From NCBI GenBank assembly GCA_963726255.1, contig CAVSBL010000002.1, positions 2,272,001-2,336,000 on the forward strand: a stretch of DNA of 64,000 bases, written 5' to 3'. Below, one piece after another: positions 28,394 through 31,290 of this stretch (within the stretch, counting starts at the first letter, position 1; the number at the start of each line of letters is the position of its first letter). Source of the stretch: Candidatus Bathyarchaeota archaeon. GTDB lineage: Archaea > Thermoproteota > Bathyarchaeia > 40CM-2-53-6. Below the pieces are notes generated by a model, which was not told the DNA's origin, searched no databases, and was given only the letters and a program-made list of their open reading frames with translations. The position numbers were made by a program, and so were the translations under genes.

Positions 28394-29044
28394 ATGGGCG
28401 ACGAGAAGTTCGAAATCGACCTCGGGAATCTTCTCTCAAGGCTCCTCCCCGACGAGAAAGACTCGGCTTTCAAGAAGTTGGACGCTGTCAAAGCGAAGCT
28501 TGTGGAGATGCACGACCGGAATCTAGTGAAGATCAATCATTCGGCTATGGAGGTTATCTGTGCTAAGGATTTGATTTTGAGGGGCTATGAGGTCGATGTT
28601 GAGCACGGCTTAGAAGAAGCGCTTGTCTGCGACCTGCTGGGAACCAAGGGCGGCGGAAGGGCCATAATTGAAATCGAGACGGGTTTCGTCCCCCCAGAGC
28701 ACGCATTGGATCCCACAGCCTTTTGCTCAGCTAGAATTGCCAGCAAGATAGCTCGGTACAGTAGATTCGCGGACAAATTCAGCTTAGCTTCACCCCTCTA
28801 CCAAGTCCTGCCAATTCCTTCACTCTTCCTGAAACCGCCGCGAGTGAGAGAGCAAGCGGAGCTGTTGGAAATGAAGACGCTGTGCGATCGCTACTACGAT
28901 AATCCACCCATAGTCCTGAAGGCGATAGCTACCGGTAGACTTCACTCGCTCTTCTTCATTGATGTGGACAGCGGGACACTGAGAGAGGTGGACCCTGAAA
29001 CTTATTCTGAGTCACTGAGTACGTGGGATAAGTTGAGAAGGTAA
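28394..29044 (+). CDS. Hypothetical protein with PD-(D/E)XK-like nuclease motif
   Basis: E helix (HSAME), GYEVDVE, VCDL...IIEIETG, SKIARY. Confidence 0.75.
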   Translation: MGDEKFEIDLGNLLSRLLPDEKDSAFKKLDAVKAKLVEMHDRNLVKINHSAMEVICAKDLILRGYEVDVEHGLEEALVCDLLGTKGGGRAIIEIETGFVPPEHALDPTAFCSARIASKIARYSRFADKFSLASPLYQVLPIPSLFLKPPRVREQAELLEMKTLCDRYYDNPPIVLKAIATGRLHSLFFIDVDSGTLREVDPETYSESLSTWDKLRR

Positions 29045-29045
29045 T

Positions 29046-29274
29046 TGCTGCCCAACTTTCGAGGCAGATGTGGCTTTCCCTTCGCGAGGGACTTTCGACC
29101 TTTCCCTCATCCAACGCCTTGGTTTTCCCTCACTCGGGCATCACGGAGTTTCTGCGGTTTCCCGCTAGCGTCGTAGCGCTACGCCCGAGCGCTCATCGAT
29201 CCACATAACGACCCAAGGCAAACCCTGGGACGGAAGCCGACCGACGAATCTACCCCTGTCTCGGTTGAGCAGCA
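29046..29274 (-). ncRNA. Putative structured non-coding RNA (~230 nt), family not recognised
   Basis: 11-bp terminal helix plus at least 7 nested helices, most mismatches being G-U on the minus strand; GAAA tetraloop; no ORF. Confidence 0.7.
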
Positions 29275-29701
29275 GACTATGATTGTCGTTGCAGAGATAT
29301 GGGGATTGTGGTTGAGCCCCAAACATCAGGTGTGATTTCCAGTGGAATGGAACATAGCTGGGTCCACCGACTCGCTACCTTCAAAAAACCAAAGCATGAC
29401 GACTCAATCAGGATGAATCAACCTATGTCTAGTTCAAACCCTCACCATTGCACGAAAAGTTCTCTCACGATGGAATTCTCATGAGCAAGGTTGCAATGGC
29501 TAGGCTTCAAGAGGTCTTACCTCATTGACGTTGGAAAAGTCTCCTGCAAGAAATGCGGACGAATATTTTCTATCGAAGAACACACTGTTCAGAAAGCCTT
29601 GGCGAAAAGAGCAGCTGAGTTCAAAGAAGACCTTCAGGAAATCGCGTTTGAGCGCAAAGGCTAGGGTCCGACGGGTATTTGCGGGCTGGCTCTTGGACGG
29701 G

Positions 29702-30724
29702 CTAGACGGATTCCATTAGGCTCGCGACTTTTTCTTCATCAAACACTTGATCTGAAATCTTACGTAACTTCATGGCGAGAGTCGCATCTCGGCCGTTTCC
29801 CAAAGCCCATTTCATATCTGAAGCTACAAACCCACTGTCCCTGAACATTCCTCTCGCGGCAAGTACGAATGGGCATGAGGTTAGGGGGTGGCCTTCTTCA
29901 AGGAGTAGTTTGAGGACGGGGCTGTAACGATAATTCTTGAACCGGAATCTGGCTTCTGAACGTGACAGGTCGATATTGATCTTGTCCGACAACCCTTGGT
30001 TTACATAGAATTCCGCTAGTTTGTTTAGGGATTCTTTGTGTCCTTCGGGAAGTTTCGTGTGGAATTCGTCTCGTAGAAATTCGATGATTCCGTGGCCGAT
30101 GTTATCGAGGAGGAGTTGGGCTTGTGCTCCTAGGTATTCGAAGCCACACGCTAATCCATACTCAACAGTCTCGAACGCAGGTAACCCCACTTTGGTATTC
30201 GAGTAGCCTGTTGGTGGGACTGTGCTAAGGTCTGCGTGCTCCGGTGCAGTGAGAACTGAGTCGGCAGGCGGTACATTCCTGAATCTGAGGCTGTATGTTC
30301 CATCTGGGGACAATCCTTCGGACAGAACTTGTGATCCACGGTGTTCTTCTCTCTCGATTGCTCCCCGTGCGAGGCATAGGGGGCAGGTTAAAAGGAAGCA
30401 ATTCTGGTTCCGGAGTTTCTTCATTAGGCCTATGAATCTCCAACCGTGCATCTTAACGAGGAAAGCCTCTCCGTCAGGTGAGAACTCGACTCCGCTCACG
30501 TAGCCAGTGTCCTTGAAGAAGCGGATAAGTTCGGAAATGGATTGGTATGGGTCTTGTGAGAGCTGTAGGTAATTCAGTTTCACTCCGTAGTCAATGATTC
30601 CAGTCCCGATTCTGTCGAGCATCTCTTGGCCGCGTTCGTGCCCAAGATAGTCGAAGGCTCTTGCTGCTCCGTAAATAACAGAATCCAACACGGCGAGCTG
30701 AATTGATTCCGTTTTTTCCGCCAT
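29702..30724 (-). CDS. Tandem-duplicated V4R/H-NOX-like domain protein
   Basis: Internal repeat VIYGAARAFDYLG...LDRIGTGIIDY versus VEYGLACGFEYLG...LDNIGHGIIEF; CPL and CPF motifs. Confidence 0.6.
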   Translation of the reverse strand: MAEKTESIQLAVLDSVIYGAARAFDYLGHERGQEMLDRIGTGIIDYGVKLNYLQLSQDPYQSISELIRFFKDTGYVSGVEFSPDGEAFLVKMHGWRFIGLMKKLRNQNCFLLTCPLCLARGAIEREEHRGSQVLSEGLSPDGTYSLRFRNVPPADSVLTAPEHADLSTVPPTGYSNTKVGLPAFETVEYGLACGFEYLGAQAQLLLDNIGHGIIEFLRDEFHTKLPEGHKESLNKLAEFYVNQGLSDKINIDLSRSEARFRFKNYRYSPVLKLLLEEGHPLTSCPFVLAARGMFRDSGFVASDMKWALGNGRDATLAMKLRKISDQVFDEEKVASLMESV

Positions 30725-31290
30725 TATATTTTCACAACTTTGTCGCAGAAGGGTGCGAGTTGTGATACTACGTCCCGTTCCGCATTCATCTCAACGGTGA
30801 GAAGTGAGCCTGAAGTGTTCCACCTGCGCATCTTCTCCGTCAATAGGTGAGCAAATTTGGCGACGGATTTTGGGTCATTGTATATGAGAAGGGTTGAGAG
30901 GCTGTCCAAGACTAGGAACTTCTCTCCAGTAATCCCGTTAATGGCCTTGGAGATGCCAATGCAGAGGTTACTTAGGTCTACACCCGACCCCAAACAAGCG
31001 TGATCGTTCTCTTCCTGAATTGATGGGACGTTCGTAATCCCGTCTACAAAGAATAATGAGCTGGATGGGATTCCAGCCTTCTCGAACGACTTGGTCAGAA
31101 CGGCGAACGGTTTGTTTAGGCTGACGTAGACCCCCCGGGAAACCTTAGCTGTGAAGTAGCGTAGGAGCTGAAGAACCGCGTCCTGATACTTGATTGGGTC
31201 GATTAGCGCGAGTATTACCGGTCGCTCTAACCCGTCCAAGCTCTCGCCAATACTGACCGAAAGATCAACGGTCAACGGGAAATCTGACAA
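30724..31290 (-). CDS. Inactive RecA/KaiC-like domain protein (DUF7504/DUF835-like)
   Basis: VYVSLNKP, FFVD, LVLDSLSTLLIYN, FCDKVV; no Walker A. Confidence 0.75.
   Translation of the reverse strand: MSDFPLTVDLSVSIGESLDGLERPVILALIDPIKYQDAVLQLLRYFTAKVSRGVYVSLNKPFAVLTKSFEKAGIPSSSLFFVDGITNVPSIQEENDHACLGSGVDLSNLCIGISKAINGITGEKFLVLDSLSTLLIYNDPKSVAKFAHLLTEKMRRWNTSGSLLTVEMNAERDVVSQLAPFCDKVVKI

Follow-up and report, generated by a model that had tools for sequence, protein, structure and literature searches.

An apparently circular structured RNA of no described family in Bathyarchaeia and Nitrososphaeria, and its linkage to the gene of a putative nuclease

Introduction

Archaea circularize the introns of their tRNAs, the precursors of their rRNAs and, in one genus, the RNA of the signal recognition particle (SRP). 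Here we describe an archaeal RNA that also appears to occur as a circle. Its gene lies on the minus strand at positions 29046-29274 of a 64,000-nucleotide stretch from Candidatus Bathyarchaeota archaeon (assembly GCA_963726255.1, contig CAVSBL010000002.1, positions 2,272,001 to 2,336,000), which we call the window and to which all plain coordinates refer. An initial annotation, made from the letters alone, had proposed a structured RNA of about 230 nt at this place. We find that the interval is a gene for a compact, conserved multi-helix RNA that belongs to no described family, that the RNA appears in RNA libraries as a circle of 200 nt, and that its gene runs tail to tail with the gene of a 216-aa protein. 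The circular topology, a bulge-helix-bulge (BHB)-like motif in the terminal stem and the linked protein gene were not part of the annotation.

Several described systems resemble this one in part. In Thermoproteus, the functional SRP RNA arises from a stand-alone non-coding RNA gene by BHB-type excision and circularization (PMC4731332). The gene described here is similar in these respects, but the Thermoproteus RNA is a permuted member of a known family, whereas ours matches no family, is apparently not permuted, and comes from a genome with its own normal SRP RNA. The circular pre-rRNA and 23S rRNA of archaea share with it a long processing stem with a BHB at its base, excision, and ligation (PMC12918454; bioRxiv 10.64898/2026.03.23.713588). 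In contrast to these, the RNA here is 200 nt long, has its own inferred promoter, lies outside the rRNA operon, and is patchily distributed. The stable circles made from tRNA introns by the EndA and RtcB pathway, in archaea and as metazoan tricRNAs, are a third likeness (PMC4536317). Here, however, there is no tRNA host, the "exons" are just the two strands of a stem, and it is the circle itself that is conserved and covarying. Finally, IS200/IS605 omega RNAs have circular isoforms in archaea, and these too are non-coding circles associated with a nuclease gene (PMC12558985). Our locus, in contrast, has no TnpB or IscB gene and showed no transposon ends, and its partner gene converges on the RNA gene instead of lying upstream and overlapping it.

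Two other comparisons are with bacterial RNAs. The genes of bacterial Y RNAs are structured RNA genes that lie beside the gene of a particle-forming protein (Rsr/Ro) and have a patchy distribution. The RNA described here also has its gene beside a protein gene and is also patchy, but it is not related to Y RNA in sequence or fold, it is circular, and its protein partner is putative. OLE, ROOL, GOLLD, and raiA are conserved, covarying, and abundant orphan RNAs of unknown function, but they are bacterial or phage RNAs and linear. Our RNA is archaeal and circular and does not match those of them that are Rfam families.

Results and Discussion

A conserved multi-helix RNA on the minus strand

Residues are numbered along the minus strand, so that index 1 is 29274 and index 229 is 29046 (Table 1). 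On this strand the interval folds at -105.6 kcal/mol (shuffled sequences have a mean of -83.4 and sd of 4.8; z = -4.65, with 0 of 200 shuffles as good). The plus-strand fold is weaker (-82.2 kcal/mol, z = -3.02), and many of the conserved pairs are G-U on the minus strand, so the minus strand is the functional one. The annotation was right about the strand, and it was right that the interval is free of open reading frames (ORFs), as all of those within 29046-29274 are shorter than 60 aa. Its choice of ends also holds: in an alignment of six homologues with their flanks, conservation drops exactly at both. The sequence occurs once in the 2.42-Mb genome. (The source assembly, G000, has a completeness of 98.5% and a contamination of 9.3%; the RNA and protein genes are on its 2.3-Mb main contig.)

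Homologues, which the annotation had suggested collecting from Bathyarchaeia and Nitrososphaeria, do exist in both classes. BLAST gave full-length matches in 6 of 60 relatives, along with two short chance-like rows. Four of the six are further members of the same genus (100, 96, 92, and 84% identity) and two belong to another family of the order (79 and 78%). RNAalifold on six sequences gave 70 pairs, from which covariance model R1 was built; R1 found more diverged copies, from which model R2 was built. The resulting alignment (A6) holds 17 sequences from the two classes. A6 has 94.9% of its 1138 cells paired, with compensatory changes on both sides in 56 of 71 pairs; because the alignments were fitted to the model, such pairing counts are inflated, which is a reservation about all of the helices except for the central 4-bp helix discussed below. 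In the controls, 0 of 500 shuffles reached any of five measures, and sliding the partners by 1-3 columns left 34-41% of cells paired. A 13-sequence set gave a similar picture (96.4% paired, with 52 of 70 pairs covarying).

The consensus consists of P1 (10 bp), a short internal region, P2 (9 bp), and a four-way junction with the arms P3, P4, and P5, with 0, 1, 1, and 2 unpaired nucleotides between arms. In P1, 95.9% of cells are paired and 9 of the 10 pairs have compensatory changes. Five of the helices that had been drawn from the single sequence are in this covariation-supported consensus: the terminal stem, GGGGUAGAU/AUCUGCCUC (P2), the CCCAGGG-UUUG-CCUUGGG hairpin, CGCUCGGGC/GCCCGAGUG (P4), and GCGG-GAAA-CCGC. 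Others did not survive comparison across the 17 homologues. The GGCUUCC/GGAAAGCC helix is paired in 45% of cells, as against the background of 34-41% in the slid controls; UAGCG/CGCUA is paired in 35%, CCAA/UUGG in 53%, and the suggested AUGUGG/CCACAU pseudoknot in 39%. GAGGGA/UCCCUC is an intermediate case: it is paired in 69% of cells, and the consensus takes a neighboring register that is paired in 94%.

As a side observation, genomes G010 and G006 of the same genus carry a 182-nt element (L108:1501-1682 and L109:1501-1682, both on the minus strand) that scores 26 bits with R1 and does not match R2. The element and the RNA have in common the P1 strands, a CCAGG...CUUGG hairpin, and a GCCACA..CUGC segment. 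Where the RNA has the staggered bulges described below, the element has a symmetric 3x3 loop; it ends in UUUUU, and it adjoins a gene of the metallo-beta-lactamase fold. Both genomes lack the linked protein. The element may be a linear relative of the RNA or a decaying copy.

No match to a described family

With Rfam 15 at the gathering score, there were 0 matches in the entire 64-kb window. A local-mode scan of 28800-29550 at E <= 10 gave five rows, all at chance level, one of which touches the RNA (12.3 bits, compared with a gathering score of 45). The annotation had seen no RNase P, SRP, or tRNA signatures, and we agree. The RNase P models RF00373 and RF02357 do not match at 29046-29274, and the one RNase P RNA of the genome maps to C2:86923-87217 (173.6 bits). 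The sole SRP RNA match in the genome (RF01857) is at C2:202764-203081 (163.6 bits). Both are on the same contig as the RNA gene but far from it, and with ordinary copies of the two RNAs located elsewhere, we rejected an RNase P or SRP identity. We also rejected a tRNA or a permuted tRNA (ARAGORN reports 0 tRNAs in the window and no conserved T-loop was visible by eye), as well as a C/D box or K-turn in the purine-rich loops (on inspection of the alignment there was no conserved box C or D and no 3-nt bulge followed by GA).

Given the Thermoproteus precedent, in which a permuted gene yields functional SRP RNA through BHB-dependent circularization (PMC4731332), one has to consider whether the RNA is a known one, for example SRP or RNase P RNA, in a circularly permuted or highly divergent form. 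The local-mode scan at E <= 10 showed no partial match to any family over the RNA apart from the single 12-bit chance row. Also, the canonical RNase P and SRP RNAs are both present in the genome. We find this explanation scarcely credible.

We found no description of this RNA or of its linked protein in the literature searched, a scope that leaves out supplements and subscription journals. The biogenesis is of a known kind. What is new, within the reach of these searches, is the RNA family, the gene dedicated to it, and the connection with a protein family that is still blank. The core of the initial annotation, a real structured RNA of an undescribed family, is thus borne out by the lack of an Rfam match, by the strong covariation, and by the presence of the RNA in RNA libraries.

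Evidence for a circular form

A run search gave 9 RNA runs from 7 studies, each of which holds a small share of the searched stretch. We examined four of these runs (X1, X2, X5, and X9), one per study. All four of these metatranscriptomes contain contigs over 29055-29257 that are joined back on themselves. None of their contigs lies over 28394-29053 or 29274-29700, an absence to which we attach no weight. In X5 and X2, the back-joint is 29255->29056, with 2 letters that fit either side (the contigs have word depths of 3090 and 62.9, respectively, which are no measure of expression). In X1, the back-joint is 29251->29055 with 3 letters between, and in X9 it is 29257->29059 with 1 letter between. 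Read against the homologues, these extra letters appear to be strain substitutions at the same joint and not another joint. One X9 contig has 230 nt, namely 200 nt and a further 30 nt in which its own end is repeated, so the joined RNA is 200 nt. Such a repeat is what a closed cycle leaves in an assembly graph of 31-mers. The back-joined contigs thus indicate that the RNA is present as a circle in these RNA libraries.

The annotation had proposed looking in metatranscriptomes for a discrete transcript of about 230 nt; the back-joined contigs instead point to a mature form of about 200 nt that is circular. Its terminal helix is a mixed case, being conserved and covarying as drawn and yet apparently not part of the mature RNA: it would be a processing stem that is removed.

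A BHB-like motif at the joint

Directly inside P1, C12-G15 can pair with C212-G215, which leaves A216-A218 and A16-A18 as bulges on opposite strands. The substrate of the archaeal splicing endonuclease has two 3-nt bulges with a 4-bp helix between them, and the (alpha-beta)2 endonucleases also cut relaxed forms (PMC6379350). The central helix at our locus is paired in 67 of 68 cells even though it is in neither R1 nor R2, and two of its four pairs covary (GC in 10 sequences and AU in 7, and AU in 9 and GC in 8). The endonuclease cuts after the second nucleotide of each bulge. Canonical cleavage would give a circle of index 18-217; the observed joint can be placed in three equivalent ways, and this is one of them. 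A precursor fold that is constrained to contain the motif is 1.5 kcal/mol above the minimum free energy. The circular form has a folding energy of -84.3 kcal/mol (z = -3.74; a single shuffle out of 200 was as low), and in this fold C212-C214 pair with G19-G21, so that P2 is closed by a loop of G215-A216-A217-A18, which reads GAAA here and GAGA in some homologues. Genes for two EndA paralogues (PF01974, 80.9 and 53.3 bits) and one RtcB (571.4 bits) are present in the genome.

We propose the following path. A transcript would run from just upstream of P1 to just past it, and its ends would pair as the 10-bp stem plus the BHB-like motif. The tRNA-splicing endonuclease, here of the heteromeric type (two EndA paralogues), which tolerates relaxed motifs, would cut after the second nucleotide of each bulge, and RtcB would join A217 to A18. 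Ligation would free C212-C214 for G19-G21, so that P2 becomes a 9-bp hairpin with a GAAA tetraloop that spans the joint, and the 200-nt circle would fold as a compact four-way junction of P2, P3, P4, and P5. Maturation by EndA and RtcB is, in our judgment, probable. The annotation had called the RNA ribozyme-like; there is no sign of self-cleavage in what we examined, and protein enzymes explain the maturation better. It had also suggested a scaffold, and this role is possible.

Could the functional RNA instead be a linear molecule of about 229 nt that is closed by the terminal stem, with circles as a minor by-product or an assembly artifact? The precursor fold is very stable (the -105.6 kcal/mol given above), and the covariation of 9 of the 10 pairs in P1 would suit a structural closing stem equally well as a processing stem. 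Also, the evidence consists of assembled contigs, from which the strand, the true ends, and the ratio of circular to linear forms cannot be derived, and an RNA library can contain DNA. Against this, the same back-joint appears in 4 of 4 runs from four studies, including in sequence variants from different strains, and in X5 the word depth at which the junction contig assembled (3090) is of the same order as that of other contigs. The joint is exactly where the covarying BHB-like motif predicts, and it creates a GNRA tetraloop. We consider a functional linear RNA to be very unlikely, and we conclude that the circle is in all likelihood the main mature form.

The sequence upstream of P1 suggests that the RNA has its own transcription unit. 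An A/T-rich, TATA-like element lies 20-23 nt upstream of P1 at 17 of 17 loci (TATAAAT at Wolframiiraptoraceae-type loci, TTATATA or ATAAATA at others), and T-rich tracts follow P1 in most lineages. We infer a short, independent transcript from the minus strand, with the promoter and terminator functions predicted from these motifs.

Since the biogenesis is the same as that of archaeal introns, another explanation is that the circle is released by the splicing of a BHB intron, or of some selfish element that resembles an intron, and that either the ligated flanks are functional or nothing is. The RNA is patchy within the genus (5 of 22 genomes), as might be expected of such an element, and splicing in silico leaves a short reading frame that appears to be open over the joint. 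However, the flanks outside P1 are not conserved, and with the inferred transcript ends the "exons" would be just ~17 and ~12 nt. The conserved, covarying part is the part that is excised. Furthermore, the RNA is in 7 of 7 sampled genomes of the family that we label f47, which points to vertical retention. We view an intron as highly improbable, and return to the circle as the product of a dedicated gene.

Linkage to a neighboring protein gene

Of all of the proteins in the window, the 216-aa ORF alone is common to all six close loci, where it is 69-94% identical, always convergent, and abutting the RNA. Using the protein as a probe, with one genome per species, we kept the best 80 of 189 relatives. 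The RNA is at the same place on the opposite strand in 10 of these best 80 loci of 189; 3 of the 10 were already counted and 7 are further. Scans with R2 found the RNA in 2 of 150 genomes in a class-wide sample and in 10 of 150 other genomes in a phylum-wide sample (7 of 7 in family f47, 2 in f57, and 1 in f14). The protein gene is adjacent and convergent at 9 of the 10 phylum-wide loci; in the tenth genome, G074, the protein is on another contig. Six of the nine apparently come from the same genomes as six of the species-collection loci, as their model scores are identical, which leaves 26 distinct loci. Overall, the RNA gene is tail to tail with the protein gene at 25 of 26 distinct loci, and every RNA-positive genome has the protein, except for the weak element in G006 and G010. 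There is no other conserved neighbor among the loci compared: the genes beyond the pair vary by locus and are ordinary.

We also built a tree of the protein (46 of 98 rows, after removing rows with >80% identity and rows of <170 aa). The RNA-linked proteins require 3 changes of state on this tree, and a single origin of the RNA-linked state is possible. Those from Bathyarchaeia, which belong to genus g1 and family f6, are sister to the proteins of Nitrosopumilaceae, apart from other Bathyarchaeia proteins (support 94/92), which hints that the RNA-protein pair may have been transferred between classes. One g1 genome, G012, has a distant, paralogue-like copy of the protein (48% identity) without the RNA.

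A separate observation concerns Nitrosopumilaceae. At L072:3660-3850 and at other loci of this family (e.g., L029 and L102), a small conserved ORF of ~40-60 aa with 7 cysteines is in the RNA's place, directly downstream of the protein gene and on the same strand as it.

A putative nuclease fold

The protein has 2601 relatives at E <= 0.001, of which 120 were listed. Among the 120 matches listed, none has a functional name (most are unnamed and the rest are "hypothetical protein") and none has a Pfam domain. Searches of Pfam, NCBIfam, and PDB sequences with the 216-aa protein gave nothing significant. The protein is highly conserved. It is ~50% identical across classes, and 37 columns are invariant over 34 sequences, including K46, N48, H49, S50, E53, E70, D80, K85, E93, E95, K118, and R121.

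The AlphaFold (AF2) model has a pLDDT of 92.3 and a pTM of 0.88. Although no Foldseek row reached E <= 0.001, the highest-ranked ones are PD-(D/E)xK nucleases. VIA-align over residues ~46-201 gave 3dnx (Z 8.9), XisH 2okf (8.7), AF1548 (8.2), NucS (6.7), and Can2 (6.2), with restriction enzymes and a tRNA-splicing endonuclease subunit lower down (Z 5-6); these Z values are middling, as 7-8 is common for models without a clear match. In the ESM Atlas, there were just "hypothetical" clusters, and the nearest named one, PDDEXK_14 at 0.86, is only a lead. D80, E93, and E95 form an invariant D...ExE; there is no lysine at the canonical PD-(D/E)xK place, while K46, K85, and K118 are invariant elsewhere. 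We read the protein as a restriction-endonuclease-like fold with a variant D...ExE motif, and hence as a putative nuclease, on the strength of the model.

Layout of the locus

The positions of the RNA, of its parts, and of the linked gene are collected in Table 1. Between the RNA gene and the next long ORF (29275-29700, ~425 nt), there are two small plus-strand ORFs of 61 and 57 aa, the second of which has one CxxC, and no Rfam match. Further on, 29702-31290 on the minus strand holds a 340-aa ORF with no Pfam or NCBIfam match and a 188-aa KaiC-like/DUF7504 ORF, and the two have a one-base overlap. The 340-aa gene is absent from the syntenic place in genome G015.

Table 1. Positions of the RNA gene, its structural parts, and the linked protein gene in the window.
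Feature	Position	Strand	Remarks
RNA precursor	29046..29274	-	full-length match of covariance models R1 and R2; conservation falls outside these ends
P1, 5' strand	29264..29273	-	index 2-11; outer helix of the proposed processing stem, which would be removed on maturation
P1, 3' strand	29047..29056	-	index 219-228
Central 4-bp helix, 5' strand (CGAG)	29260..29263	-	index 12-15
Central helix, 3' strand (CUCG)	29060..29063	-	index 212-215; after circularization, 212-214 would pair with 19-21 and form the top of P2
5' bulge (A16 C17 A18)	29257..29259	-	ANA in 17/17 sequences; predicted cut after C17
3' bulge (A216 A217 A218)	29057..29059	-	3 nt in 17/17; AAA, AGA, or AAU in homologues; predicted cut after A217
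Mature 200-nt circle	29058..29257	-	index 18-217, equally 19-218 or 20-219 (2 letters fit both sides); from back-joined contigs
P2, 5' strand	29248..29256	-	index 19-27
P2, 3' strand	29061..29069	-	index 206-214
P3 arm	29193..29247	-	conserved GGG...GCCU hairpin; helices 4 and 5, 94-100% paired, 15/19 pairs covary
P4 arm	29131..29191	-	conserved base helix, length-variable tip; helix 6, 97.4% paired, 8/9 pairs covary
P5 arm	29072..29129	-	purine-rich 5x5 internal loop (GGGA on both strands); helix 12, 94.1% paired, 7/8 pairs covary
Weak TATA-like element (CCATATC)	29296..29302	-	21 nt upstream of P1; read from the sequence
Linked 216-aa protein gene	28394..29044	+	convergent with the RNA gene; stop codon ends 1 nt short of it

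What the pair may do

Taken as a whole, our reading is that this is a gene for an RNA of a new family, that the RNA is made into a 200-nt circle by EndA and RtcB, and that the circle would work with the product of the neighboring gene. We hold this reading to be likely on balance, although its last part is more weakly inferred. The stable circle would act with the protein of PD-(D/E)xK-like fold as its RNA partner, its regulator, or its substrate, and whether the circle is indeed a partner of the adjacent protein seems to us evenly balanced.

Several points tell against this reading. First, the motif is not a strict BHB. G19-G21, which follow the 5' bulge, have no partner in the precursor conformer, so the inner (h') helix starts late, from G22, and the motif is relaxed (hBH-like). 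In one of the 17 sequences, an A-G mismatch interrupts the central helix. The 2-nt ambiguity of the joint leaves the exact cut sites unproven. Second, the protein is often found without the RNA. Among 61 relatives, 18 have the protein and 7 have a strong RNA score. In 11 of the 18 protein-positive relatives, R1 with its filters off and without a positive control found no RNA beside the protein gene, and for three of the 11 there was no RNA anywhere in the genome with R2. Whole-genome scans of RNA-less, protein-positive genomes were empty as well (R2 on 5 and R1 on 5, without a positive control). The RNA is at none of the Nitrosopumilaceae loci among the best 80 of 189 relatives. As the protein occurs without detectable RNA, it does not strictly need the RNA. 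Finally, adjacency alone does not show binding.

These same observations raise the question of whether the RNA works independently of the protein, with their adjacency being inherited synteny. The protein is without the RNA in many lineages and the two genes are unlinked in G074. Also, the genes are convergent, so they are not cotranscribed. On the other hand, the adjacency has been kept across two classes in which all other synteny is gone, and the protein is in every RNA-positive genome. An independent function for the RNA appears unlikely to us.

A more specific form of partnership would be that the circle is the RNA subunit of a new archaeal ribonucleoprotein. The four-way junction, which is nearly perfect with its 0 to 2 unpaired nucleotides between arms, would be bound by the adjacent protein, whose predicted fold is like those of junction-resolving and repair nucleases. 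The RNA could then be a Holliday-junction mimic that restrains the nuclease, or a scaffold that directs it, and the coupling would be ancient across Bathyarchaeia and Nitrososphaeria and would have been lost later in ammonia oxidizers. We offer this tentatively, as a somewhat doubtful possibility.

Alternatively, the RNA and the protein could be a two-part accessory module that spreads horizontally, such as a defense system or an RNA-antitoxin/nuclease-toxin pair. The two have a scattered occurrence in related genomes (the protein in 18 of 61, the RNA in 7 of 61), the RNA-linked proteins of Bathyarchaeia group with those of Nitrosopumilaceae (support 94/92), and the modeled fold of the protein would suit a nuclease. 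But ~50% identity across classes and presence in very many Nitrosopumilaceae are more like a housekeeping protein, and a very stable circle would be a poor choice of labile antitoxin. Furthermore, the neighbors are ordinary metabolic genes, with no mobile-element or defense genes among them (PADLOC was not searched). We think that such a module is distinctly unlikely, and we retain the circle, as a possible partner of the protein, as our preferred reading.

Implications

The question may be testable at the bench. In the protein tree, an f47 genome falls within a clade whose named members are Wolframiiraptoraceae, and this family is reported to include a cultivated species (PMC9246946). Both Bathyarchaeia and thermophilic Nitrososphaeria have the RNA, and RNA samples from peat, soil, sediment, and freshwater yield assemblies of it with a high word depth. 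The RNA further offers a way into a large and functionally blank protein family that is present in the globally abundant ammonia-oxidizing archaea. If our reading is true, then a dedicated gene with a circular, highly structured RNA of a new family as its sole conserved product would represent a new class among the few non-coding RNAs that are widespread in archaea.

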